From the sequence record MN850566.1: a stretch of 64,000 nt of DNA. One strand, given 5' to 3'. Shown here piece by piece: positions 2,371-45,568 of this stretch (positions are counted from its first letter, which is position 1; every line of letters starts with the position of its first letter). The DNA is from Escherichia phage garuso. A model generated the notes under the pieces. That model worked only from the letters and a program-made list of their open reading frames with translations, did not search any database and was not told the origin of the DNA. Position numbers and translations under genes: made by a program.

Positions 2371-3440
2371 TTAACCAGCACCCAATCTTTTTAGGTGGTG
2401 AGAGAAAAACTTTTGACTCACTCAATAAGCACTACCCAAAAATCTTTGAACTTTATAAACAACAAAAAGCACAAGATTGGTCAGAAGATGAGTTCCCTTT
2501 TGAACAATCACGTCTTGATTTTGAGAGTGTCCCAGCATCAATGTCAGGTGTAATGCTTGAGATTCTTAAGTGGCAATGGGAAGCAGACACTCAAGTTGCT
2601 AAGAGCTTGGCATTTGCCTTTGCACCTTTTATCTCTGATGACATATATGCAACTGCAATTATGAAGCAGTCTGAGATTGAAAACCTACATGCTCTTACTT
2701 ACTCAGAGATTGTAAGGCAATGTATTAAAAACCCTGAAACAATCTTAGATGAGATTAACCAGAATGTTGCTGTGCAAGACCGATTAAAAACTGTGAATCG
2801 TGTTCTTGAAGAATTATTGGATGAAGGGATAAACTACCGACTGAGTTATGTACGTGATTCACTTCTGGACAAAGACCCTTTACACTTCCATAAAGTGATT
2901 CTAAAAGGTCTGTTTGCAGTGACTGCACTTGAAGGTATATCTTTTATGGCATCCTTTGCATGTACCTTTGCACTTGATGCTCAAGATAAATTTCAGGGTA
3001 TTGCTCAAGCTGTCCAGAAGATTATGCTTGACGAAATCCTTCACACTAAAATTGATATTGAAGTTTTAAAAGAAACTTTAAGAGATGATGAGTGGCAGAA
3101 AGCTTTTCAACAGATTCTTCCAGAGATTAAAGTAATCTTAGATGAAGTAGTTGAAAGTGAAGAGAAATGGTCGTATTATATCTTCTCCGAAGGACGTGCT
3201 GTAGTTGGCTTAAATACAAAGCTTCTTCATGAGTGGGTTTACTATAATGCTGCCCCACTGTATGATATGTTTGGCATTCCAAGAGATTTTGTAGCTCCCA
3301 AAGAACCACCTTTGAAGTACATGATTAAGAAGATGGAAATTGATAAAGAGCAGAATGCTAATCAGGAGCAACAGAACGGTGCGTACCTGTTGAATACTGT
3401 TGTAGATGATTTGAATAGTGGATTTTTAGAGGTTCCTTAA
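2367..3440 (+). CDS. nrdB: Ribonucleotide reductase class I small (beta) subunit
   Basis: Ferritin-like R2 features (…ALEGISFMASFACTFAL…, EILHTKIDIE); ATG 2367 preceded by AAAGGAG; track ORF starts upstream at 2307. Confidence 0.85.
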   Translation: MINQHPIFLGGERKTFDSLNKHYPKIFELYKQQKAQDWSEDEFPFEQSRLDFESVPASMSGVMLEILKWQWEADTQVAKSLAFAFAPFISDDIYATAIMKQSEIENLHALTYSEIVRQCIKNPETILDEINQNVAVQDRLKTVNRVLEELLDEGINYRLSYVRDSLLDKDPLHFHKVILKGLFAVTALEGISFMASFACTFALDAQDKFQGIAQAVQKIMLDEILHTKIDIEVLKETLRDDEWQKAFQQILPEIKVILDEVVESEEKWSYYIFSEGRAVVGLNTKLLHEWVYYNAAPLYDMFGIPRDFVAPKEPPLKYMIKKMEIDKEQNANQEQQNGAYLLNTVVDDLNSGFLEVP

Positions 3441-3682
3441 TGACTTATATAATTTACTCCAAAACTGGATGCCCTCAGTGTGAGACTGCAAAGAATTTTG
3501 CAAAAGCTCGTGGTATTGACCATGTTGTGAGAATGTTAGGGCAGGATTATGAACTGTCAGACCTGATGGATATTGCACAGATGCCAGTTCGTCAGATGCC
3601 ATTCATCATGAAAACCGATGGACAAAACCTAAAACCTGTTGGGACGCTACAGAATTTTATGGCAGAGGTGAATAATGCTTAA
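3440..3682 (+). CDS. Glutaredoxin/NrdH-like redoxin (CPQC active site)
   Basis: 80-aa ORF with N-terminal CPQC dithiol motif; start overlaps nrdB stop (TAATGA); sits between nrdB and nrdD. Confidence 0.7.
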   Translation: MTYIIYSKTGCPQCETAKNFAKARGIDHVVRMLGQDYELSDLMDIAQMPVRQMPFIMKTDGQNLKPVGTLQNFMAEVNNA

Positions 3683-3881
3683 ACGCATTTGGGAAGGTTT
3701 GGTTGTTGATGCACCAGCTATTGTGATTGGTATGCTTATTGTTAACCTATTTACTGACTTTGAACAAGGTTCATTGTTTGGAGCCATGTTACTATGGGTT
3801 ATCTTCGAAATATTAGAGATACAGCTAGGCATCACTGAAAAACTAAGAGAAATCTTTGCGAAGTTTTCTAAAAAGATTTAA
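3675..3881 (+). CDS. Small hydrophobic protein (68 aa)
   Basis: Track ORF with predicted membrane helix; followed by intrinsic terminator at about 3888-3910. Confidence 0.35.
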   Translation: MLKRIWEGLVVDAPAIVIGMLIVNLFTDFEQGSLFGAMLLWVIFEILEIQLGITEKLREIFAKFSKKI

Positions 3882-3887
3882 AATGAA

Positions 3888-3910
3888 AGGGTCTCTTCGG
3901 AGACCTTTTT
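3888..3910 (+). terminator. Intrinsic terminator
   Basis: GGTCTC-TTCG-GAGACC hairpin followed by TTTTT. Confidence 0.6.
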
Positions 3911-3929
3911 AGCATGTAAAGGGGCAATA

Positions 3930-6074
3930 ATGAACAAAGTACAGATTATTAAAAAGAATGGCTCACTTGAAGAACCTGATATCAAAAAAGTTTTAGCAGC
4001 AGTCACAAAGTCAGCTAACAGAGTTGGTTATAAAGAGCTTCCACCAGATGTTACTCAAGCTCTTGAGTCAGCATTTATGAGGATTCTGGTAAAGTCCACT
4101 AAGCAGAATAATTTGCTAATTTCGGTAAATGATATTCACAGTATTGTTGAGGGTGCTTTGGCAGAAGTCAATCACGAGATTTATGAGTCTTACTCAACAT
4201 ATAGAAATTACCGTAAAGAGGTTGCTCAAAATTGGGATGAGCTTTACCAAAAGACTAGAGATACACTCTTCTTAGGTGACCGTGAAAATGCTAACTTTGA
4301 CAGCAGTTTAATTTCTACAAAAGGCTCAATTATTCGTGGTTACTTGACTAAAGAAATCTTTAAACAGTACCATTTAACACCAGAGGAACTTGAAGCCATT
4401 GAAAAAGGGTTTATCTACATCCATGATTTAAGAGACCTAATTTTTGGTGGTATCAACTGTTGCCTGTTTGACATCGGTAAAGTACTGAAAGGTGGCTTTG
4501 AAATGTCTGGTATCGAATACTGTGAACCAAAGTCTGTGCTGTCAGCCTTACAGGTTATTGGCGATGTAGTTCTTTCAGCAACTGCACAGCAATTTGGTGG
4601 CTTTACTTTAGCAGAGATTGATAAGGTACTTGTACCGTATGCTAAAAAATCTTTAGTGTACCACTCAGAGAAAGCTGAAGAGTACGGAATACCTAAAGAG
4701 CAACACTATAATTACGTAATGGAGCAATTACAGAATGAGTTAACACAAGGTTTCCAATCTCTTGAAATGAAACTTAACACTGTTCCTTGCAGTCGCGGTG
4801 ATTTTGCATTTACTACTCTGACATTTGGCCTGTTGGAACCAGATATGCACAATGAAGATAACCGTCTTCAGTTTATGATTACCAATACAATCCTTAATGT
4901 AAGGATGAACGGGCAAGGAAAAAGCAAAAAACCTGTTGTGTTTCCTAAACTTGTGTATATCTATGAAGAGACAAGACATAAACTTGATGTATGCCAAGCA
5001 AGGTTGTTTGAAAAAGCTATTGAGTGTTGCTCTAAAGCGATGTATCCAGATTTCTTAAGTGTATCTGGTCATGGTGCTGTAGCAGATGCTTTTAAGCGTT
5101 CTGGTAAGGTGATTTCACCGATGGGTTGCAGAGCTTTCTTATCTCCATATCTTAACGAGAATGGAGAAGAGTTCTATGTTGGTCGTGCTAACATTGGTGC
5201 TGTATCTTTGAACTTGCCAATGATTTACCAGTATTCTAAAGAGAATGGTTTAGATTTCTGGAAAGAGCTTGATAAGTACCTAGAGATGATTCGCAGCTTC
5301 CACAAGAAACGCTACGAAATGATTGCTAACATGCCAGCAAGCTCTAACCCTCTTGCATTCACACAGGGTGGTCTGTACAAAGGGAATAAGAAACCTACTG
5401 ACAAGGTTGGCTGGGATATCGTGAAGTCCTTCACAGCTTCTTTTGGGGTTACTGCGCTTGATGAGCTATCTGTTCTTGCTGAAGGTAAACGACTCCATGA
5501 AGTTGGAAGCTGTAGTTTTGCATATGATGTTCTGGCATACATTAACATGAAAACTGAAGAGTTTAAGAACGAAGATGGCTTCTTGTATGCGGTATATGGC
5601 ACTCCAGCAGAATCACTTTGTGGAACTCAGTTAAAACAGTTCAGAGATATGTTTGGCGTTATTAAAGGTGTCTCTGACAAGGAATACTTTACAAACAGTT
5701 TCCATATGAATGTTGCAGCAGACATCTCACCATTTGAGAAGCAGGACTTAGAAGAGCCATTCTTCCATATCTGTAGAGGTGGTAGAATCCAGTATGTAAG
5801 GGTAGCTAACCCAGAAAACTTAACAGCACTTAAAAGTTGTATTACAAGAGGGATGTTGAAAGGTTTCTATCAGGGGCTTAACTTTGACTTAGCAATCTGT
5901 GAACATTGTGGTAACAGACCAAAGGCTGATGTTGAAGAATGTGAGGTTTGCCATTCACATGATATCTCTGTGATTAACAGGGTGTGCGGGTACTTGTCAT
6001 TCACAAAAATTAAAGGTCAGTCTCGAATGAATGACGCTAAGATGGCAGAAATTAAGGATAGGGTTTCTATGTAA
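3930..6074 (+). CDS. nrdD: Anaerobic ribonucleoside-triphosphate reductase (class III)
   Basis: 714-aa ORF; C-terminal glycyl-radical motif (…VINRVCGYLS…) preceded by Cys-rich Zn ribbon (CEHCGN…CEVCHS); GGGG RBS before ATG. Confidence 0.85.
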   Translation: MNKVQIIKKNGSLEEPDIKKVLAAVTKSANRVGYKELPPDVTQALESAFMRILVKSTKQNNLLISVNDIHSIVEGALAEVNHEIYESYSTYRNYRKEVAQNWDELYQKTRDTLFLGDRENANFDSSLISTKGSIIRGYLTKEIFKQYHLTPEELEAIEKGFIYIHDLRDLIFGGINCCLFDIGKVLKGGFEMSGIEYCEPKSVLSALQVIGDVVLSATAQQFGGFTLAEIDKVLVPYAKKSLVYHSEKAEEYGIPKEQHYNYVMEQLQNELTQGFQSLEMKLNTVPCSRGDFAFTTLTFGLLEPDMHNEDNRLQFMITNTILNVRMNGQGKSKKPVVFPKLVYIYEETRHKLDVCQARLFEKAIECCSKAMYPDFLSVSGHGAVADAFKRSGKVISPMGCRAFLSPYLNENGEEFYVGRANIGAVSLNLPMIYQYSKENGLDFWKELDKYLEMIRSFHKKRYEMIANMPASSNPLAFTQGGLYKGNKKPTDKVGWDIVKSFTASFGVTALDELSVLAEGKRLHEVGSCSFAYDVLAYINMKTEEFKNEDGFLYAVYGTPAESLCGTQLKQFRDMFGVIKGVSDKEYFTNSFHMNVAADISPFEKQDLEEPFFHICRGGRIQYVRVANPENLTALKSCITRGMLKGFYQGLNFDLAICEHCGNRPKADVEECEVCHSHDISVINRVCGYLSFTKIKGQSRMNDAKMAEIKDRVSM

Positions 6075-6136
6075 AACTTGACAAGGTGGTGTGGGTCTTG
6101 ATAGGCTTACATCACCTTTTTATTTGGAGTTACATT

Positions 6137-6472
6137 ATGGACTTGTGGCTTTATGTAGCAGTTTGTGGGATTGTATGTCTGATAATCTTATTTATTCTTG
6201 GAATAATGCGATTTAGAGACATCATACAGTCAGATTTTTTGCCTGAGTTTACCATGATAGTTGGAGTTATTACACTTTGTGTCTTGGCTGTGTTCTATTC
6301 ATACAAAACTGTGATATGGATGGAGGCAAACAATTGTGTAAAAACTCATCAGCATCGTGAGGTTACTCATTTTGTGAGTGTACTTAGTGGTAGCACCACT
6401 ATACTTGTCCCACAAACTTCTGTAGAGTATCTTTACACATGTGATAATGGTAAAACTATATGGTGGAATTAA
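6137..6472 (+). CDS. Membrane protein (111 aa)
   Basis: In-frame ATG at 6137 with GGAG RBS inside track ORF 6086..6472; strongly hydrophobic N-terminal half. Confidence 0.4.
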   Translation: MDLWLYVAVCGIVCLIILFILGIMRFRDIIQSDFLPEFTMIVGVITLCVLAVFYSYKTVIWMEANNCVKTHQHREVTHFVSVLSGSTTILVPQTSVEYLYTCDNGKTIWWN

Positions 6473-6675
6473 CAATGACAACACTCTTAAAAGTATTGAT
6501 ACCCATACTACATATAGCAGTCTTCTTTTTTGGTGTTAGTGTTATGGTATGGGGATTTTCAGACCCACAATGGAGTTTCTCATATCATGGTCAGATGGAT
6601 TTATGGTCATGCTTCAAACCATTTTTAGGGTTAGCTATAGCATTCAGTGCATTACCAACTAAGGTGAAATTATGA
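6460..6675 (+). CDS. Small membrane protein (71 aa)
   Basis: Track ORF; hydrophobic segment; overlaps neighbours by a few nt. Confidence 0.35.
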   Translation: MVELTMTTLLKVLIPILHIAVFFFGVSVMVWGFSDPQWSFSYHGQMDLWSCFKPFLGLAIAFSALPTKVKL

Positions 6676-12296: not shown

Positions 12297-12311
12297 TTTC
12301 TGGAGAAAACT

Positions 12312-12647
12312 ATGAAAATCAAAGAGATGAACATCAACATTGTCTTAGAAGAACGTTGGGAGAACATTAAGAAACCTGAAGATGGTAAAAAGTTCCTTAA
12401 CAAAATTTTAGTAGCAGCTAAAGAAGAACTGACTGGCAAGATTGCAGCAGCAATCACAATAAAAATCTGTGTAAAAGGTCTTCCACAACATCACCAATTT
12501 GCACTTGACGAGTTTAAAGAAAGCTTCTACAATCCAAACAAACAGATGCTTGAAAGTAACTTTGCAGTGTCTACAAGTATCGTCCATGACAGAAGCTTTA
12601 TCCTTTACAAGAATATGAGAGGTGAGTCATGCAAGCATATTGGATAG
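12312..12647 (+). CDS. Hypothetical protein (111 aa)
   Basis: Track ORF; GGAGAAAA RBS. Confidence 0.45.
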   Translation: MKIKEMNINIVLEERWENIKKPEDGKKFLNKILVAAKEELTGKIAAAITIKICVKGLPQHHQFALDEFKESFYNPNKQMLESNFAVSTSIVHDRSFILYKNMRGESCKHIG

Positions 12648-12805
12648 AAATTTTACTGTCACTTGGTAGTGTAGCAGTATTTGTTTACCTTCTTTGCAAG
12701 TACTATGCAGAGCACAAGAAGTGTGATTACTGCAACGGGGAAGGGTACACAAGAGCAGGTTGTTGCCCTATTTGTGGTGGTTCTGGTAAAATGTTTAATA
12801 AGTAA
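12629..12805 (+). CDS. Small Cys-rich membrane protein (58 aa), absent from the ORF track (below length cut-off)
   Basis: ATG 12629 after AGGTGAG; translation MQAYWIEILLSLGSVAVFVYLLCKYYAEHKKCDYCNGEGYTRAGCCPICGGSGKMFNK with one helix and CxxC…CxxC. Confidence 0.3.
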   Translation: MQAYWIEILLSLGSVAVFVYLLCKYYAEHKKCDYCNGEGYTRAGCCPICGGSGKMFNK

Positions 12806-12833
12806 TTTAACAGTAAACTAAGAGGAAAGTATT

Positions 12834-15200
12834 ATGCGCATGGTAAACGACCACGCAGAAGTGATTAAGAGTTCAACTTCTTTGGAGACATCTCAAGCAC
12901 AGATTACAATGACACCTGAAATGTTCAGCCTTTTGAGTTCAGGTGTATACACATTCAAAGAAAGGGCAGTGATTCGTGAACTGTCATGTAACGCAGTAGA
13001 TGCTCAAAAAGAAGCTGGAAAAGAGAACATCCCATTCCATGTGCATTTACCTACTCGATTTGAGCCTTACTTTGAAGTCCGTGACTTTGGAACTGGTTTA
13101 ACCCATGACAAAGTAATGAGTTTGTATCTGAACTATGGGGCTTCTACGAAGAATGACTCCAATGATTACATTGGTGCAATGGGTATCGGCTCAAAATCCC
13201 CATTTGCAATTGCTCAGTCATTCACAGTATCTAGCTATGTTGATGGTGTTGTTAATAAGTACTCTGTTTACCTTGAGAATGGTATCCCTCAAGTAACTAA
13301 GCTTACTACCAACCCAACAAATGAACCCAATGGTTTAGCTGTACGTGTGGCAGTTGCTGACCATCGTATTTCAAAGTTCTTTGAAGAGGCTGGTCACGTA
13401 TACTCATACTTTGCTGTAAAACCAGAAAGTAACATTGTGTATGATGATGTATTAGCAGATATGAATGTCATTGCCCGTGAAGAGGGTGTTTATGATGCTA
13501 TGATTCATAAGCAAAGCTGGCGTTCTAGTGGCAACAGGACAGAGTTTAATGTGGTGATGGGTAATATTGCCTACCCAGTGAACATGGAAGCATTACTTGG
13601 TGATGATTTCTTCAAAGTCTTGCCAGAGTTTTTCCGTAGGAGCGTAGACCTTGTAAACATCTACATGCCTATTGGTTCAGTGGCTATTGCAGCTTCTCGT
13701 GAAGCATTGCAGATGAATGACACGACAAAAAATGTTATCATTGAGGCTACTAAAAAGATAACTGAAGCCATTACAAAGGATGTTATCAAGAAAGTTAACA
13801 ACCAACCTACACTCATGGATGCTGCACAGGCTTATGCTGAGTTACGTTTGAACTCACGAGAGATGTTTAATGCTGTGTGTCCAAAGCTAGAGTGGGGAGG
13901 CATTAAGCTTGATTCTCTGGAAGAAGAATTACTAAACATTCGTCGTGGGATTATCTACGCAGAAGACGGCTCAGTCATTTATGAACGTGACGGTAAAGGT
14001 AATATCAAGGTTGATAGGAACGGGAACAATATCCCTAAAGTGGATTATCTTTATAATCCAGTTGCTTATGTCAAGTTCAACTCTTTAGAGAGTAAGATTC
14101 GTGCAGCAGCACTTTCCTACACTCAAGAGGCAAGTATGTTCAATATCTTTGGTGCAATGCGTAAAAGCCAAATTGAACAGTTTTTGTTCGTGATTAATGA
14201 CCGTCGTAATAAAAATGGCACTGAGAAGACTGTAGGCCGCAATCAGATTCTGCGTGGTGCATGTCGAGACTACGCTAGCGAGTCAAGCCTGTTCCACAGA
14301 TACAATGGTATTGTGTTTGTATTCTCGACTGAAAAAGAGTTAGATGATTTAATCAATCTACACAAGCTTGATAAAAGTTTGTTAAAGATTGTGAAGATGT
14401 CTGATAAGGAACACCATTATCAGCGTAAAGAAGCTGTGAGGGGTGTTGTAAAACTCTGGAAAGCTGTTCCATCAGAAACTAAAGCTTCATACACAGAGGT
14501 GTCAGAAGACCTAGATACAATTGAAGAACCCCAGCTTTATATCAAGGCAGTAGGCGACACAGTTGATGGTGAATGTTTTTGCTCATCCCCAGAAGATGTA
14601 GCTAAAACAATTGCTAATGTTATAGGAAAAACAGTCTATGTTTTCCGAAAAGCAAATTGGAAAAAGATACCAGAAGACTGGATTGAAGTAGATGAGAAGC
14701 TATTGAATGACAGCTTAACTGATGTTCACTGGATTAATCATAACAGGTATATGACACGTATCTATATGAATGGTGTCCTTGACCTTACAAGTAGTTGGAT
14801 TATTGCCAGAAACTTTACGTTTAATAACAAGAAGATTTCTCGCGGGTATTGCTATTCACGAGATACAAACAAAACCATCTTCTTAGAAGGTAATGAGAAT
14901 GCTGTTGAGGCAATGTTTGGTAAGATTCAGTATGTGGCTGCACCGTTTGCATACACTTACACTATCAGTGTTCTTCAGGATTTGAAGTCATGCCTTGACA
15001 ATGATACAAAACTGTACAAAAAGATTAAGAAAGCGGGTGACCGCATGGTTATCAAACTGACAAACTATCTTTCAAAAAGAAAACAAGAAAACTTCTTGCT
15101 TTCTCATTTAGATTGGAATAAAGTGTCACCCATCGAAGTGAGTAAGTTCTTAGGTTTTGATGTGAAGTGTGTTCCAGAAGGAACTACAATTTACGATTAA
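12834..15200 (+). CDS. Hsp90/HtpG-like GHKL ATPase-domain protein (788 aa)
   Basis: N-terminus has Bergerat-fold boxes in Hsp90-like order: AVIRELSCNAVDA (N box), DFGTGLT (G1), GAMGIGSKSPF (G2); AGAGGA RBS; remaining ~600 aa unassigned. Confidence 0.55.
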   Translation: MRMVNDHAEVIKSSTSLETSQAQITMTPEMFSLLSSGVYTFKERAVIRELSCNAVDAQKEAGKENIPFHVHLPTRFEPYFEVRDFGTGLTHDKVMSLYLNYGASTKNDSNDYIGAMGIGSKSPFAIAQSFTVSSYVDGVVNKYSVYLENGIPQVTKLTTNPTNEPNGLAVRVAVADHRISKFFEEAGHVYSYFAVKPESNIVYDDVLADMNVIAREEGVYDAMIHKQSWRSSGNRTEFNVVMGNIAYPVNMEALLGDDFFKVLPEFFRRSVDLVNIYMPIGSVAIAASREALQMNDTTKNVIIEATKKITEAITKDVIKKVNNQPTLMDAAQAYAELRLNSREMFNAVCPKLEWGGIKLDSLEEELLNIRRGIIYAEDGSVIYERDGKGNIKVDRNGNNIPKVDYLYNPVAYVKFNSLESKIRAAALSYTQEASMFNIFGAMRKSQIEQFLFVINDRRNKNGTEKTVGRNQILRGACRDYASESSLFHRYNGIVFVFSTEKELDDLINLHKLDKSLLKIVKMSDKEHHYQRKEAVRGVVKLWKAVPSETKASYTEVSEDLDTIEEPQLYIKAVGDTVDGECFCSSPEDVAKTIANVIGKTVYVFRKANWKKIPEDWIEVDEKLLNDSLTDVHWINHNRYMTRIYMNGVLDLTSSWIIARNFTFNNKKISRGYCYSRDTNKTIFLEGNENAVEAMFGKIQYVAAPFAYTYTISVLQDLKSCLDNDTKLYKKIKKAGDRMVIKLTNYLSKRKQENFLLSHLDWNKVSPIEVSKFLGFDVKCVPEGTTIYD

Positions 15201-23559: not shown

Positions 23560-23647
23560 CACTGGTTTTTAGATAGATTAAATTACACATCAACGGGGAG
23601 GGAATGACCTTCCCCACTAAATAAAGTCCTAAACTGGAGATTCTAAA
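23556..23647 (+). repeat. Family-2 promoter/leader-hairpin/RBS cassette, copy 1
   Basis: TTGACA-N17-TAAATT, then leader hairpin GGGGAGGG-AATGA-CCTTCCCC, then actaaataaagtcctaaactggagattctaaaATG. Confidence 0.6.
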
Positions 23648-23920
23648 ATGTATACTACTAACAACGGTCGCACTTTAAATGTCACACTACGTCACTATGT
23701 AGATGGTGTCATGCACTTTGAAGACTTACAAGCTGAACAACATATCTTAGATTGGCAAGTCGCAGGACTCCAAAAAACTGCTACCGGATACGGTAAAAAG
23801 ATTCCAACCAGTTGGAAAGTACACTATGAAGGCCGTTTGCGCAGAATTTATCAGGATGTGCAAAGCAATAGTGCATCGAGTTACATTATAGTAAAAGGTA
23901 AAAAACTGCATTTAGTGTAA
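23648..23920 (+). CDS. Small early-region protein (90 aa)
   Basis: Preceded by family-2 cassette (promoter, GGGGAGGGAATGACCTTCCCC hairpin, RBS). Confidence 0.5.
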   Translation: MYTTNNGRTLNVTLRHYVDGVMHFEDLQAEQHILDWQVAGLQKTATGYGKKIPTSWKVHYEGRLRRIYQDVQSNSASSYIIVKGKKLHLV

Positions 23921-24418: not shown

Positions 24419-24511
24419 TTGACACTGGTTTTTAGATAGATTAAATTACACATCAACGGGGAGGGAATGACCTTCCCCACTAAATAAAGTCCTAAACTGG
24501 AGATTCTAAAA
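24419..24511 (+). repeat. Family-2 cassette, copy 2
   Basis: Near-identical to copy 1. Confidence 0.6.
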
Positions 24512-24715
24512 ATGGCTATTATTAACGGCTTAACCATTGAAACTACACACATCAAAGATATTAAAGTTGGTGATATAGTCCTTTCCCACGGCGTAGAAAA
24601 AACTGTCACTGCAAAGGATATCAAAGAGGATTCTTTCATGGGTAGGACTCTCTTCGGTGATTCTTATTGCTTAGGTTATCTTGCAGTTTTAAAAGTTGTC
24701 AAAAATAACAAATAA
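24512..24715 (+). CDS. Small early-region protein (67 aa)
   Basis: Preceded by family-2 cassette. Confidence 0.45.
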   Translation: MAIINGLTIETTHIKDIKVGDIVLSHGVEKTVTAKDIKEDSFMGRTLFGDSYCLGYLAVLKVVKNNK

Positions 24716-25644: not shown

Positions 25645-25734
25645 ACAAGCCTGATAAAAGTCTGTAAATTGTCAATCAACGGGGAGGGAATGACCTTCCC
25701 CACTAAATGAAGTCCTAAACTGGAGATTCTAAAA
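25641..25734 (+). repeat. Family-2 cassette, copy 3
   Basis: TAGACA-N17-TAAATT with the same leader hairpin and RBS. Confidence 0.55.
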
Positions 25735-26076
25735 ATGGCTTATGTAACCGTAATTACCGATAAAGCTGGCGCATCTTGGTCAACTCAGGTTAGTGATAAG
25801 ATGTCGCCTATGCAGTGCCTAAAATACTTTGAACAGTGGAACAAAGGCGAGGACACAAGCCCCTTTCACGTAATGCAGATTATTCATGTAGACAATGAAG
25901 GGAAGAAAACAACTCTGAATAGTGAGTACTACGCAAGCCGTTTTGAAACGAGAAGTAAAGCAATGAAGCTCTTACGTGAGGCCGGATATGGTCACATTGC
26001 CGCGATAATCTGGGATGACCTTCTAAAAAGTCAACGTATCAGCTATGTAAAGCCTGAAAAAATATTCATCAGTTAA
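25735..26076 (+). CDS. Small early-region protein (113 aa)
   Basis: Preceded by family-2 cassette. Confidence 0.5.
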   Translation: MAYVTVITDKAGASWSTQVSDKMSPMQCLKYFEQWNKGEDTSPFHVMQIIHVDNEGKKTTLNSEYYASRFETRSKAMKLLREAGYGHIAAIIWDDLLKSQRISYVKPEKIFIS

Positions 26077-26204: not shown

Positions 26205-26295
26205 TTGCAATCAGCTATCAAAACAAGTAAATTACTAATCAACGGGAGGGATGACCTTCCCCACTAAATAAAATCCTTAAACTAGGAGAGTCAAA
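26205..26295 (+). repeat. Family-2 cassette, copy 4 (divergent)
   Basis: TTGCAA-N17-TAAATT with shortened hairpin GGGAGGG…CCTTCCCC and RBS …ctaggagagtcaaaATG. Confidence 0.5.
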
Positions 26296-26826
26296 ATGAA
26301 CAAGTTTAAAGCTATCAACTTCATTCGTTCAAATGCTGTAATGTCAAAACCTGTAAAAGACACATACGAATTTCGCTGCAATGGGGTACACTTTGCAACC
26401 ATCACTAAGTCAGAAAACGGGGCTTATTACATTCATCGCCGTAATGTTTCTACTGTTGTAGTCTCTCACTTTATGCAAGCTGTAGCGGAATTATTACCGT
26501 TATTCTTAGAGATTTACTTAGATGAGTGCAAAAACGTTCGTAACCACGTTAAAAACCTTTTAAACGGTTATAAAATGGCTTATGAACGTTCTATCAAGTC
26601 CTTAAACAAGTTTTATAAAGCCCCTGTAAATACTGTTTCAATGGCTTACAGTGTAAGCGGTGAGTTGGTTAGTCTCTTCGAAGTGGAAGAAATCGAACTA
26701 TATAACTCACGTCCTAGCGGTTACTCTAAGACACTAGGAGAGGGCTTATCTTTCAATATCAAGAACTTAGAAAAAACTTTAAAAGATATTGAAAAAGATA
26801 TTGACGAGACAATCAAAAGTCTGTAA
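26296..26826 (+). CDS. Small early-region protein (176 aa)
   Basis: Preceded by family-2 cassette variant. Confidence 0.5.
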   Translation: MNKFKAINFIRSNAVMSKPVKDTYEFRCNGVHFATITKSENGAYYIHRRNVSTVVVSHFMQAVAELLPLFLEIYLDECKNVRNHVKNLLNGYKMAYERSIKSLNKFYKAPVNTVSMAYSVSGELVSLFEVEEIELYNSRPSGYSKTLGEGLSFNIKNLEKTLKDIEKDIDETIKSL

Positions 26827-26905
26827 ATTGTCAATCAACGGGGAGGGAATGACCTTCCCCACTAAATAAAACCCTTAATCAACTTCCTAAACTGGAGATT
26901 CTAAA
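26801..26905 (+). repeat. Family-2 cassette, copy 5
   Basis: TTGACG-N17-TAAATT with the same leader hairpin and RBS. Confidence 0.55.
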
Positions 26906-27154
26906 ATGGCTACTATCCGCGCAACTGTTAACGAATTCGGCTTCTACTCTCTGGACGTTAAATTTGACCTTGTAGGTACTGATAACACCTTTGAAATGGT
27001 GAAAGGCCTTATCAGCCAGACCATCAGTGACTACAACCCCTCTGATGAATTCTGGAAAGAAACAAAACAGGAAGTTCTCAAAGAGGGTTATACATACCAC
27101 TACTGGGGTGAAAAAATTGTCTCCCTGTACTACGACAAAAAAGGCACTAACTAA
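26906..27154 (+). CDS. Small early-region protein (82 aa)
   Basis: Preceded by family-2 cassette; last + strand gene before the noncoding region; terminator at about 27193-27219. Confidence 0.5.
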   Translation: MATIRATVNEFGFYSLDVKFDLVGTDNTFEMVKGLISQTISDYNPSDEFWKETKQEVLKEGYTYHYWGEKIVSLYYDKKGTN

Positions 27155-27192
27155 ACGCCGCAACGGGGCTAAATAGCCCCAGATACCTTTAC

Positions 27193-27219
27193 AGCCCCTT
27201 TCCCATAGGGGCTTTTTTA
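27193..27219 (+). terminator. Intrinsic terminator ending the + strand early-gene block
   Basis: AGCCCC-TTTCCCAT-AGGGGCT hairpin followed by TTTTTT; a second GC hairpin (GGGGCTAAATAGCCCC) lies just upstream. Confidence 0.6.
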
Positions 27220-27224
27220 CGTCT

Positions 27225-28790
27225 TATCAAATCCCTTATACAACCCTTTCCCTTTCCTTTCCAGAATCTTATCAGACCTTAAAAAGCAATAACTCTATAG
27301 TCTACTCTATAGCCTTTTATCAAATCAACTTAAATATAAGCCCATAACCCGAAAGGGAAGGGCAACCGTTTAAACGCTCTATAAAGCTCTATAACAGCCT
27401 TATCAACCTAACTTAAGGGATTGCATTAACTCACCCTAAAAAGCCCTTTATAAAGCTTCCCAGAGACTTAAAAGAATCTTATAAGGGTGTAAGCTTTATC
27501 ATCTCGTTAGCTATCTTGTGAACTACTAAACAAGCCCCTTGATAGTAACTGAAAAGTATGTTATAGGGGCTTTAAAGTTACTTTGAAGTAGCTTAAAAGT
27601 TACGTAAATGCTAGCCCCCTTAACATTTTCTTAACAATTTCTTAACAATCCCTACATAGTTATGCTTTTAAGACACTTGTTAGCAACTTGTTAGCCCCTT
27701 GTTAAATCTCTGTTAAGACCACGTAAAAGCCTTGTAAGAACCTTTGACATAGCCTTAAAAGCTCCTGTAAAGCCCTATAAAGAGCTATCTGTACAGTTGG
27801 GGGGTAAATACTAGGAAGAGACTTAAAAGGGGTTATACAGAGCTATACAGAGCTTTTAAGAGGTATGTTTAAAGAATCACTAAGAAAGGAAAGGGAACGA
27901 TAAGAAAAGAGTAGTGACCATGTTAATAGCTTGTTAAAAAGATTAAACACTTGTTAGAGACTTGTTAATTATCTTAACAAAATAACTCTTAACATTTAAC
28001 TACTTAGCTCTTGTTAGTCATCTGTTAAGATTCTGTAAAGCCTATTCAGCACTTGTTAAGAAACTGTTACACCCTTGTTAGTTCTGTTAAGAAACTGTTA
28101 AGACCTTTGAAGAGTTGTTAAGAAGATGTGAGAACTGTTAAGAGATTGTTAAGGATATTTTAAAATTTTGCAAAGTACTTGTAAGGGAGCTGTTAAGGGC
28201 TACCAAGCAGATATACATCCTAGACAGATATTTTTCAGTTCCTTCAAAGACCCTAAAAAATGACTTGATAGTCCTATTTTATAAAAATTTTAAAATTCTG
28301 AATAATTACCTATACAGTCTTTTAAAAATACAGGTAGAAACAGGCTTATAAGATACCTTGTTAGTACCGTGTTAGACCTTGTGAGATAAGGTCTGTAAAG
28401 ATATTCCTGTTAAGTTTGTTAAAACAGTCTATATAGAGGCTTAGTAATACCTAGTGAACACCTATAGAGGGTATCATAGCTAACCTAGAGATTAAGAGGT
28501 GTATAGGAGCTTCTAAGAGGGTATAGAGAGATGGTTAAGGTGATTGTATAGGTTGTTTAGAAGGCTTGTTAGAAGAGTGTTTAGAAGGGCTATACAGAGG
28601 GGCTATTAAGACCACTAGATAGTTACTAAGATACTATATAGTACTATATAACTATATAGAGAGTAAGATTAAGAAGGTTGTTAAGAAGGATGTTAAGAAG
28701 GATAGATATTTTATTCACATATGATGGTGACCCAGAGGTTGGGACAACCGATGAAATTTTATAAAAATTAAAAAGCCCCCAACTAAGGAG
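27225..28790. repeat. 1.6-kb ORF-free, repeat-dense region at a convergent junction
   Basis: No ORF of 60 aa or more on either strand; dozens of irregularly spaced copies of (C/T)TGTTA(A/G)(G/A) (CTTGTTAG, CTGTTAAG, GTTGTTAAGAAG), densest at 27650-28200 and 28350-28720, plus CTATATAG/ACTATATA clusters at 28620-28660. Confidence 0.6.
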
Positions 28791-28800
28791 GCTCTTAAGA
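28770..28800 (-). terminator. Intrinsic terminator ending the minus-strand block
   Basis: Minus-strand reading gives GAGCCTCC-TTAGTTG-GGGGCT hairpin followed by a T-rich run. Confidence 0.45.
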
Positions 28801-28804
28801 TATT

Positions 28805-29398
28805 TTAAATCAGTGTTTCCAGAACTGTCTTCAGTGATGACTTGGTTGTCTGATAAAAATGAGTAAATCCATTGTTGTTATCAAACACCTGCATCATGAT
28901 ATCATCTCCCTTGATTGGGTATACTCGGATATCATAGTGGAACCCATTAAAGACAGCAGAACCATTACAGAATGCACTAAAGTCATCCACTGAGATATAC
29001 TCTTCATGACCTGTGATTTTTATGCAAACACCTTTACTCGGTCTCTTAGGGTTGATATCCTCCATCACAGACATACTCTGTCCACCAAGAGATATCATAG
29101 TGACCACTTTACGGTTCTTCTGTCTAAAGTACATCTTAACTTTCTGTAAAGTGTCTTCATAGAACGGATAAGACTTCTCTACAAAGATGCCTTCTAATGG
29201 CTCTTTGCCGTTTACAATACCTCTGGTATGACGTACTGAGAAGATAAGTTGCTCTAGTATGTCAAGGCTTTCTTCGGAGAGTGCTTCCCGAATATCATTC
29301 CAGTCAAGGACTAGGTAGTTGCCTTCAACTTCTTTTAAGTTATCTTTTTTCATATCTATCACACCATTATCGTAAAACTTGGTAATCTGGGGCTGCAA
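28805..29398 (-). CDS. Hypothetical protein (197 aa)
   Basis: Track ORF; last gene of the minus-strand block, followed by a minus-strand hairpin plus T-run. Confidence 0.5.
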   Translation of the reverse strand: MQPQITKFYDNGVIDMKKDNLKEVEGNYLVLDWNDIREALSEESLDILEQLIFSVRHTRGIVNGKEPLEGIFVEKSYPFYEDTLQKVKMYFRQKNRKVVTMISLGGQSMSVMEDINPKRPSKGVCIKITGHEEYISVDDFSAFCNGSAVFNGFHYDIRVYPIKGDDIMMQVFDNNNGFTHFYQTTKSSLKTVLETLI

Positions 29399-42248: not shown

Positions 42249-42327
42249 GCTCCATTACTCCAATTGGCAGAGAGGCCAGACTTAAAATCTGTGTTATGTA
42301 TCGGTTCGAATCCGATATGGAGTACCA
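42249..42327 (+). tRNA. tRNA-Leu (anticodon TAA), short (7-nt) variable arm
   Basis: Acceptor GCTCCAT/ATGGAGT, A73, Leu-type D-arm (CTC-CAATTGGCAGA-GAG), loop CTTAAAA, T-arm ATCGG-TTCGAAT-CCGAT, CCA encoded. Confidence 0.55.
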
Positions 42328-42332
42328 AATTT

Positions 42333-42408
42333 AGCGGCATAGCATAACTGGCAATGCAGCAGTCTCTGAAGCTGTCTTATTAAGGTTCAAATCCTTATGC
42401 CGCTGCCA
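42333..42408 (+). tRNA. tRNA-Gln (anticodon CTG)
   Basis: Acceptor AGCGGCA/TGCCGCT, D-arm GCAT…ATGC, anticodon stem GCAGT/GCTGT with loop CTCTGAA, T-arm TAAGG-TTCAAAT-CCTTA, CCA encoded. Confidence 0.7.
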
Positions 42409-43945: not shown

Positions 43946-43966
43946 TTCTATTTGCGGAGGTGCTTA

Positions 43967-45568
43967 ATGGACTTAAATGCTGTTAAGCAGAAGCGAGTGG
44001 AAGATGTTAGGAAAGTCCTAGCTGGAGAGTTGGGGCTTTCTGATGAAGTAAAAGAAATTATCAAATCATTCGGTAAAGACCCCTCTAAATTCCTTCCAAC
44101 TCAAATTCTGACTTTATTAAGATACACACCAGACCAAGTTCGCCTTATCTTTAAATTGATGACTGATAAGAACTATGTAGCCCCTCAGCCGGGTTCTCAA
44201 GAGGTCTTTTTAAATACTAATGCTGACTTGGTTCTCTATGGTGGTGCTGCTGGTGCTGGTAAGACTGCTGCATTGTTAATGGACTCTTTAAGATTTATTG
44301 AAGACCCTAACTATAATGCTGTGTATTTCCGTCGAAACACAACACAGTTACAAGGTGGTTTATGGCCTGCTGCAAAGAAACTATTTGGTAAGTTTGGTGG
44401 GGTTCCTCACGAGCAGAAAATGACTATTACATTCCCTTCTGGGGCGACTATCAAGTTTACCTATCTAGAACTTGAAAAGCACGCTGAAGGTCATCAGGGT
44501 ATTGAATACTCAGCTATTTACTTTGACGAAGGTACACACTTCTCTGCTTCACAGATTTCATACCTACAAACACGTCTTCGTTCTGGTGCTGAAGGTGATT
44601 CATACATGAAGATTTCCATGAACCCAGACAGAGACCACTTTATTTACGATTGGGTAGAGCCATTCTTAGATGAAGAAGGCTATCCAGACCCTGAAAAGTG
44701 TGGTCGTATTCGTTGGTATGTAATGAATGATGGTGTGATGGTTTCTGATTGGGAGAGAGACAAGATTCTTGAAATGTTTCCTCTTGAGATTCCTCAAACA
44801 TACACCTTTATCTCTGGTACGATTGATGATAACCCAATCCTTGACTTCTTAGAACCTAAGTACCGTGGTAAGTTGGAAAACAACACTCCTGTAAACGTTG
44901 CAAGACTTCGTTTCGGTAACTGGAAGGCTCGTGCAGAAGGTTCAAACTATTGGCAAAGACAATGGTGTGAAATTGTTGATTCACTCCCAGAAGATGTATT
45001 CGATGTTAGAGCATGGGACTTAGCAGCAACTTTACCATCTGAGGTTAACCCTAATCCAGACTGGACAGCAGGTGTTAAGATGGGTAAATCTAAAAAAGAC
45101 GGTTGCTATTATATCATTGATGTAGTAAGATTTAGAGATAGACCCTCTGGAGTCGAAACACAAATTAATTTGACTGCTGAAAGTGACGGTAAGCGAACTG
45201 GTATTTTTATCCCTCAAGACCCAGGCGCTGCTGGTAAATCCTACGCAACATCCCTCATCAGGAAACTTGCCGAGAAAGGCTATCGTGCAAGAGCTAAACC
45301 AACAAATAAAGATAAAGTTACCCGATTTGCGGGGTTTTCTGCTGCTTCTGAAGCTGGACTTGTAAAAGTTTTGAGAGGTAGTTGGAACGAAGCTTATTTC
45401 CAAGAGCTTGAAGGCTTTTGTGGTGATGGCAAAACTAAAGATGACCAAGTGGATGCTACCAGTGATGCTTTCAACAGTCTTAACGAAGTTAAATTATTCA
45501 AGCCACCATCAATGGGTGCTCACACAGACTTAGTGAGAGGAAACCCATATGAGGGGCTTAGACGTTGA
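43967..45568 (+). CDS. Terminase large subunit
   Basis: ATG 43967 with GGAGG RBS inside track ORF 43952..45568; Walker A (LYGGAAGAGKTAALL) and Walker B-like (IYFDEGTHF); followed by the portal gene. Confidence 0.7.
   Translation: MDLNAVKQKRVEDVRKVLAGELGLSDEVKEIIKSFGKDPSKFLPTQILTLLRYTPDQVRLIFKLMTDKNYVAPQPGSQEVFLNTNADLVLYGGAAGAGKTAALLMDSLRFIEDPNYNAVYFRRNTTQLQGGLWPAAKKLFGKFGGVPHEQKMTITFPSGATIKFTYLELEKHAEGHQGIEYSAIYFDEGTHFSASQISYLQTRLRSGAEGDSYMKISMNPDRDHFIYDWVEPFLDEEGYPDPEKCGRIRWYVMNDGVMVSDWERDKILEMFPLEIPQTYTFISGTIDDNPILDFLEPKYRGKLENNTPVNVARLRFGNWKARAEGSNYWQRQWCEIVDSLPEDVFDVRAWDLAATLPSEVNPNPDWTAGVKMGKSKKDGCYYIIDVVRFRDRPSGVETQINLTAESDGKRTGIFIPQDPGAAGKSYATSLIRKLAEKGYRARAKPTNKDKVTRFAGFSAASEAGLVKVLRGSWNEAYFQELEGFCGDGKTKDDQVDATSDAFNSLNEVKLFKPPSMGAHTDLVRGNPYEGLRR

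Follow-up and report, generated by a model that had tools for sequence, protein, structure and literature searches.

A gene-free gap with helically phased TGTTAAG arrays as the probable genome terminus of Felix O1-type phages

Phages with short direct terminal repeats (DTRs), such as T7 and T3, package their DNA from concatemers, with cuts made at fixed sites and the repeat duplicated in the process. To our knowledge, the recognition and duplication of such ends are understood only for T7 and T3. Short repeated sites near a packaging cut are a familiar theme elsewhere: at the R sites of lambda cosB (bound by gpNu1) and the pacL and pacR boxes of SPP1 (bound by G1P), the small terminase subunit binds cooperatively and bends or wraps the DNA. 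The T7 sequence itself shows a related layout. The heptamer C[CA]TAA[AG]G occurs four times in the 160-bp DTR, 11 times at 175-355, directly to the right of the left DTR copy, and five times at 39621-39700, to the left of the right copy, with a spacing that is mostly 13 nt. We know of no established role for these flanking heptamer arrays, so likeness to them is not in itself proof of a packaging role.

Short DTRs have also been published for the Felix O1-type phages, with lengths of 581 bp in Pr103Blw, 608 bp in UAB_Phi87 and 613 bp in Ro111lw; the termini were set with PhageTerm in Pr103Blw and Ro111lw, and with Bal31 digestion and run-off sequencing in UAB_Phi87. In the literature we searched, the DTR is given by its length only, and its location in a gene-free gap, the phased TGTTAAG arrays that fill it and its inverted edges are not described. 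The Felix O1 genome paper, a comparative Felixounavirus paper and the papers on VpaE1 and Michonne do not mention the gap, and the PhageMaP essentiality screen of the Felixounavirus Bas63 targeted genes only. We would stress that the DTR is already known for the genus: the DTRs of UAB_Phi87, Ro111lw, Pr103Blw and M7 are the same element as the one described here, which is homologous from boundary to boundary to a 614-bp segment of UAB_Phi87 and to the terminal copies in the records of CRP22, NBEco005 and E9, and the place of which corresponds to that of the DTR in M7. What is new is a testable detail of that element, its phased and symmetric array, and not a category.

The DNA analyzed here, the window, is a stretch of 64,000 nucleotides from Escherichia phage garuso (record MN850566.1). 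Judged by its sequence, it belongs to a Felixounavirus, that is, a Felix O1-like myovirus, and the gap that it carries at 27155-28804 (about 1.65 kb) is conserved in more than 250 Ounavirinae genomes. In all, 256 phage records match the region with its flanking DNA (80-94% identity), almost all of them from Felixounavirus or other Ounavirinae, and the hosts of the matching Felix O1-like myoviruses are Escherichia, Salmonella, Shigella and Citrobacter; in Felix O1 the counterpart of the gap lies at coordinates 12301-13933. A preliminary description of this DNA had stated that the region is devoid of ORFs of at least 60 aa and that both flanking transcription units end at it. Both statements were borne out: an ORF scan finds nothing of that size, the two longest ORFs being one of 35 aa on the minus strand (27843-27950) and one of 31 aa on the plus strand (28168-28263), and a hairpin resembling an intrinsic terminator closes the gene block on either side (Table 1). 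The two flanking terminators are annotated in the records of ASO1A and Moogle.

It could be argued that the gap hides genes for small proteins or non-coding RNA, or that it holds a plasmid-like partition centromere, and we regard this as hardly probable at all. Some records do annotate "hypothetical proteins" of 25-50 aa here, and the repeats bring to mind the 11-bp iterons in parC, the centromere of plasmid R1; against this, no ORF exceeds the 35 aa just mentioned, Par-like genes are absent from the four flanking ORFs, and searches for RNA signals returned little. A search of the gap against Rfam at a permissive E-value gave no match below E = 0.2, the best hits scoring 25.5 and 20.1 bits where the gathering scores are 55 and 40, and hence no known structured RNA. 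A sigma-70 promoter scan of the gap found only weak 9-of-12 matches (12, vs 6.3 ± 3.1 expected), several of which are the repeats themselves. Among curated records of relatives, we found no credible gene annotation in the gap, and in the records of some relatives it bears "repeat_region" features.

Table 1. Coordinates of the features in and around the gap, and of the large terminase gene, as positions in the 64-kb window.
Feature	Position	Strand	Details
Intrinsic terminator, ends upstream gene block (last ORF 26906-27154)	27193-27213	+	7-bp stem, 5 GC pairs, T-run; homologous site annotated in ASO1A and Moogle
Left unique flank	27215-27613		CTCTATAG twice, CTTATCA-type and AAGTTAC(G)TAAA repeats; no strict TGTTAR copies; 0.7-0.95 identity across 9 Felixounavirus/Mooglevirus sequences
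Predicted DTR, single collapsed copy, 591 bp	27614-28204		Starts GCCCCCTTAACA, ends TGTTAAGGGCTACC
Three reversed TGTTAAG (CTTAACA) at DTR left edge, outward-pointing	27620-27648	-	Exact 11-nt spacing; period 11, 95% match
Four forward (C/T)TGTTA(A/G)	27675-27717	+	Exact 11-nt spacing; at 27678, 27689, 27700 and 27711
Four forward, then two reverse copies	27921-27995		Forward at 27921, 27932, 27952 and 27963; reverse at 27974 and 27989
Main forward array, 10 strict copies plus degenerate TGTAAAG, TGTTAC, TGTGAG and TGTAAG	28012-28197	+	Period 31, 3.3 copies; direct-repeat spacing 31, 31, 31
Conserved AAGCAGATATACA directly outside right DTR boundary	28205-28217		Identical in CRP22, NBEco005 and the window; present at the homologous phiEa21-4 boundary
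AT-richest 100 nt of the window, candidate easily melted segment	28254-28353		GC 0.22; 50 nt beyond right DTR boundary; 0.90-0.95 identity
Secondary TGTTAG/TGTTAAG sub-array outside DTR, 4 strict copies plus TGTGAG and TGTAAAG	28346-28425	+	Motif scan
TATAG-type palindrome/repeat cluster	28426-28665		CTATATAG at 28429, 28634 and 28652; also CTATAGAG, GGTATAGAG and CTATACAG
12-nt tandem repeat TTAAGAAGGATG, 2.9 copies, with 2 TGTTAAG	28666-28705	+	95% match
Intrinsic terminator, ends downstream gene block (last ORF 28805-29398)	28771-28796	-	10-bp stem; annotated in ASO1A
Large terminase subunit, presumed cutter at DTR boundaries	43952-45568	+	PHROG 979, E = 1e-233; Pfam Terminase_6N, Terminase_6C

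The records of relatives make it very probable that the short DTR of the Felix O1-type phages maps to 27614-28204, the core of the gap. In CRP22 (579 bp), NBEco005 (651 bp) and E9 (580 bp), 100%-identical copies stand at both ends of the record, all mapping to this interval, and the boundaries in the three records are the same to the nucleotide: on the left aaatgcta gives way to GCCCCCTTAACA, and on the right TGTTAAGGGCTACC gives way to aagcagatataca. The records of H12, NBSal004, BPS15Q2, MET-P1-301, ECOH1, SPJ41 and NJ12 start or end at the same points; for E9 and H12, the termini were set with PhageTerm. Over these stretches, the window is 86-89% identical to the DTR-bearing records, and the boundary sequences match exactly. 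Identical sequence at both ends, the mark of a T7-type genome end, is hence present in close relatives, and M7 adds a 444-bp copy; the termini moreover behave as fixed and non-permuted: both boundary strings are identical in three independent records and invariant in nine Felixounavirus and Mooglevirus genomes. From this homology we infer the termini of garuso, and the assembly behind the window would have collapsed the two copies of the DTR into one. In the virion, the left flank (27215-27613) would thus lie just inside the right-end copy of the DTR. The preliminary description had offered a menu of roles for the region. Two of these, the genome end of a linear molecule assembled as circular and a packaging site, gain support from the mapping of the relatives' DTR inside it; a third, a partition-like site, goes without support, there being no Par-like genes adjacent and the phage being lytic, as the Felix O1 group has been described.

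A more distant comparison points the same way. The Erwinia phage phiEa21-4, a Kolesnikvirus, aligns with the window over only 74-83 nt, all of it within the main forward array (28012-28197), but both the gap and the motif are present in it, and from the conserved boundary strings a DTR of 439 bp is predicted there. The record of its relative M7 carries an identical copy of 444 bp at both ends, the start of which is 3 nt, and the end 2 nt, off the prediction, and 12 Kolesnikvirus records begin or end at the predicted point. Because this cross-genus prediction is matched by the ends of M7 and by these 12 records, we place the genome terminus in the gap throughout the Ounavirinae. Three genera retain a motif density of about 18/kb, also where their DNA can no longer be aligned, and a (G)GTTAAG run resembling the 12-nt tandem repeat occupies the same relative place in phiEa21-4; the TATAG-type cluster is found in Mooglevirus and is absent from Kolesnikvirus.

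The motif itself is strongly concentrated. Strict TGTTA(A/G) occurs 30 times in the gap, at 18/kb vs 1.7/kb elsewhere in the window, and when the 64 kb are divided into 500-nt bins, two bins hold 13 and 14 copies and all others hold 0-4. Within 27225-28790, 25 strict copies lie on the plus strand and five on the minus strand, giving a plus-strand density of 16/kb vs 0.8/kb in the rest of the window (about 20-fold). The preliminary description had counted some 35 copies, which agrees well with the 36 sites returned at a score of at least 7 by a weight matrix with the consensus (C/T)TGTTA(A/G)(G)a, and the enrichment over the rest of the genome that it had left to be measured amounts, within the 64-kb window, to 38-fold for TGTTAAG in 27225-28790. 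Its cluster of palindromes is likewise real, with CTATATAG present three times in the gap and nowhere else in the 64 kb, and CTATA[TC]AG six times in the gap vs once in the rest of the window. It was mistaken, however, in calling the copies irregularly spaced, since they lie 11, 20-22 or 31 bp apart and are helically phased. Eleven of the 19 neighbour distances of up to 45 nt are exact multiples of 11, a count reached in 0 of 20000 random draws, and most of the rest measure 9, 20 or 31 nt. Overall, a period of about 10.1-10.5 nt fits best, and a super-period of 31 nt (three helical turns) runs across 28021-28160.

That the motif fits no consensus that can be named, as was also claimed, still stands after comparison with PhoP, DnaA and IHF consensus arrays and with Rfam. 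Scans for host-factor consensus sequences gave no match for IHF, Chi or the PhoP box, and one for DnaA. A role of the array as a decoy for a regulator of the PhoP/OmpR type was considered and rejected on the zero matches to the PhoP box (KGTTTA-N5-KGTTTA), the 11-nt register of which fits the array while its hexamer does not fit TGTTAA/G.

The arrangement of the copies follows the predicted DTR closely. The DTR holds 23 of the 30 strict copies (39/kb), and the remaining seven lie in the right flank. Its two edges are inverted repeats of each other, 27620-27648 being the inverted-repeat partner of 28168-28199 and of 28126-28163, and an outward-pointing TGTTAAGGG stands 5-7 nt inside each boundary; on the right, this is the last copy of the main forward array, which ends 5 nt short of the boundary. 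Reading inward from either physical end, the DNA hence opens with GCCC(CC)TTAACA.

Among the nine Felixounavirus and Mooglevirus genomes, the DTR-equivalents range from 569 to 866 bp and hold 21-31 motif copies, and their indels cluster at 11-12 and 22-24 nt, sizes that are consistent with unit-wise gain and loss of repeats. One could read this variation in length and copy number, with indels in steps of about 11 and 22 nt such as slippage typically leaves, as the mark of functionless, slippage-prone repeats that are tolerated in a gene-free place, with only the boundary sequences being of consequence. We deem this very improbable. The heptamer, its density and its phasing persist in Kolesnikvirus despite unalignable surrounding DNA, the orientation of the edges is conserved, and the motif cores are more conserved than the spacers: within the DTR, identity across the nine genomes is 0.966 for motif columns and 0.839 for spacers (p = 3e-14), a comparison that is partly circular, since the window itself served to define the motif and repeats are prone to align with one another.

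We propose that the gap is probably the concatemer junction and genome terminus, and that the TGTTAAG array serves as its packaging signal, most likely as a set of protein-binding sites. For the packaging role of the arrays taken by itself, our confidence tips only modestly beyond even. By analogy with T7, the terminase would act on replicated concatemers, cutting at both DTR boundaries, with duplication of the DTR. The copies of (C/T)TGTTA(A/G)(G), which we infer to be binding sites, would be occupied by a protein that marks the junction, be it the terminase itself or a factor that resembles a small terminase or recognises the ends. As the sites recur at about every helical turn (11, 20-22 and 31 nt), they would lie on one face of the DNA, which would favour cooperative binding or wrapping, and as the arrays at the DTR edges are inverted, a single recognition geometry could position both cuts. 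The large terminase gene lies 15.7 kb from the gap. In the four ORFs that flank the gap and the four upstream of the large terminase gene, neither PHROG nor Pfam detected a DNA-binding or small-terminase family, and the small ORFs that neighbour the large terminase belong to no known family; in the UAB_Phi87 paper, likewise, a small terminase was not recognised in either Felix O1 or UAB_Phi87. The array could also provide a lead to the small terminase or end-recognition protein that has so far been missing in the Ounavirinae.

A more elaborate version of this proposal can be put forward as a tentative and, taken whole, rather unlikely scheme, in which the ends of the Ounavirinae are set by a nucleoprotein array. 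A putative protein would coat some 20-30 phased TGTTAAG sites over the whole DTR, the inverted edges would work as rulers for both cuts, setting them 5-7 nt past the last outward-pointing site, and the AT-richest segment would start replication, either of the kind that duplicates the DTR or of the genome. If this were true, the gap would be a combined packaging, terminus and origin module, of a type that has not been described for myoviruses.

The AT-rich segment also raises the question of whether the gap is in the first place a replication origin, in which the phased repeats are iterons and the AT-rich neighbour an unwinding element, the overlap with the DTR being secondary or the locus serving as origin and packaging site both. 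The direct repeats are indeed iteron-like and helically phased, and they stand beside an AT-rich element in the manner of iteron origins, 50 nt separating the array from the segment listed in Table 1. The position of the gap between convergent transcription units, which therefore leaves it free of read-through, and a consensus DnaA box at 28711 may be added on the same side. Iteron origins and R1 parC share with the gap these blocks of direct repeats at about one helical turn beside an AT-rich segment, but garuso differs from them in having no adjacent initiator or partition genes and in that its arrays are bounded by genome termini. No initiator-like gene was found adjacent, the flanking ORFs being without a known family in PHROG and Pfam; the DnaA box is single, unclustered and not above background (one, vs two elsewhere in the window); the GC skew of the window tracks gene orientation only; and the exact stop of the arrays at the DTR boundaries, together with their inverted symmetry, is nothing that an origin requires. 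We therefore consider an origin unlikely as the explanation of the arrays, while noting that the origin and packaging readings are compatible and not exclusive.

In T5, a repeat-rich non-coding region within the terminal repeat is linked to the stop in DNA transfer, and the arrays described here might similarly act at the ends during or after DNA ejection, by binding a virion or early protein that protects against RecBCD, that pauses or anchors the entering DNA, or that promotes recombination between the DTRs. Since the arrays lie within the DTR, 23 copies would be present at each physical end, and the terminal gene blocks are transcribed toward the ends and stop short of them, as would suit such a function. 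A two-step transfer was not found for Felix O1 phages in the literature searched, however, nor was a candidate protein found among the flanking ORFs scanned, and the inverted layout, centred on two cut sites, is better explained by the generation of termini. We judge an ejection function to be improbable.

Returning to a packaging terminus, the closest likeness is to the junction of T7, where a short exact DTR also lies in non-coding DNA packed with a heptamer in one orientation, both inside and beside the DTR; in garuso, too, one short motif, in one orientation, adjoins the DTR in non-coding DNA. This is an analogy and not a homology, as the two share no sequence homology. The motif and its spacing differ (CCTAAAG at 13 nt in T7, TGTTAAG at 11, 20-22 and 31 nt in garuso), as does the placement of the copies, which are mostly outside the DTR in T7, whereas 77% are inside it in garuso. 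The DTR of garuso is moreover about four times longer than that of T7, and it belongs to a myovirus with a large terminase of the T4 type and without a phage RNA polymerase. Lambda cosB and the SPP1 pac site, for their part, resemble the garuso locus in having several short repeated sites beside the cut, and the cooperative binding of a small terminase subunit at those sites, with bending or wrapping of the DNA, is the mechanism that we would propose here by analogy; but they have three to seven sites and a known small subunit, in contrast to the approximately 30 sites, the two cut sites 591 bp apart and the small subunit unrecognisable in our scans that characterize garuso. A second, unrelated lineage with a denser, phased and symmetric array would nonetheless provide a cleaner system in which to ask what such arrays bind.

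The placement of the terminus also has practical consequences. Most of the more than 250 public genomes of Felix O1-type phages are opened at arbitrary points, and the invariant strings GCCCCCTTAACA on the left and TGTTAAGGGCTACC followed by AAGCAGATATACA on the right would allow them to be oriented at their true ends, which would be useful for synthetic or cell-free rebooting and for the engineering of therapeutic and diagnostic phages. At least one record, that of UAB_Phi87, carries a false terminal overlap. Its ends are identical over 542 bp and map to 41830-42371, in the tRNA/terminase region, and we considered, and rejected, the possibility that the terminus lies there and not in the gap. 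The overlap is an assembly artefact, because 87603 - 542 + 608 = 87669, which is the published physical length; the record ends were rejected as a terminus because they predict a SpeI end fragment of 1134 bp, while fragments of 4.3 and 2.8 kb were observed, and because the other records put the DTR in the gap. The UAB_Phi87 segment homologous to 27614-28204 is 614 bp long, vs 608 bp in the publication, and with the SpeI sites on either side of it the terminal fragments should measure 4431 and 2751 bp. These compare with Bal31-sensitive SpeI bands reported at 4322 and 2819 bp, an agreement to within 2.5% only. The figures in the UAB_Phi87 paper are themselves not fully additive, as 4322 + 2819 - 6568 gives 573, and not 608.

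Upstream of the gap, the gene-free and TGTTAAG-repeat-rich region of the window, we note a cassette of about 70 nt, (G)TAAATTACACATCAACGGGGAGGGAATGACCTTCCCCACTAAATAAAGTCCTAAACTGGAGATTCTAAAATG, which is found in five copies before successive small genes. Its features are a GC hairpin, a Shine-Dalgarno sequence and a 3' limit at the ATG of the small gene. This cassette, which overlaps a 39-bp direct repeat known from the Felix O1 paper, looks like a repeated promoter/5'-leader module. Within the gap itself, in the stretch that separates the right-hand terminator from a 12-nt tandem repeat, lies a single perfect match to the DnaA-box consensus, TTATTCACA (28711-28719). Since a consensus scan returned two further matches in the remainder of the window, this box may be a chance occurrence.

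Further downstream, a putative tRNA gene cluster has the terminase block on one side and, on the other, the early divergent promoter region at ~36.4 kb, the counterpart of the intergenic region that separates genes 40 and 41 in Felix O1.

Positions of the features discussed (window coordinates unless an accession is given)
Feature	Position	Strand	Length	Basis
Cassette copy	23579-23650		~70 nt
Cassette copy	24442-24522		~70 nt
Cassette copy	25664-25737		~70 nt
Cassette copy	26227-26296		~70 nt
Cassette copy	26823-26908		~70 nt
Putative tRNA gene cluster	38159-41585	+		homology to annotated UAB_Phi87 tRNAs
PC79-13 "repeat_region"	OR687644.2 86760-86886 (L019 1880-2006)		127 bp

Counts over the whole window (1-64000) reveal that GATC is absent, against some 217-225 copies expected, and that CTGCAG (0 observed, 23 expected), CAGCTG (0, 15) and ATGCAT (1, 15) are strongly avoided. 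This absence or depletion indicates genome-wide selection against Dam/MboI-type, PstI, PvuII and NsiI sites.

The record of UAB_Phi87, a Felix O1-type relative (JN225449), bears an identical 542-bp overlap at its two ends (1-542 and 87062-87603; L004/L005), and users who take these for physical ends can be misled. The overlap is tRNA/terminase-region sequence, equivalent to 41830-42371 of the window; it is an assembly artefact, distinct from the published 608-bp direct terminal repeat (DTR). A 90.5%-identical copy of the Felix O1-type DTR is present at 135884-136463 (H88) of GU169904.1, a 147-kb record titled "Staphylococcus phage SA1", and its occurrence there suggests that this record is chimeric or contaminated. 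The record of Suspvirus PC79-13 has its terminus inside the DTR-equivalent, and the "repeat_region" annotated at that point probably reflects an overlap left by the assembler at k = 127 and not a repeat of biological origin.
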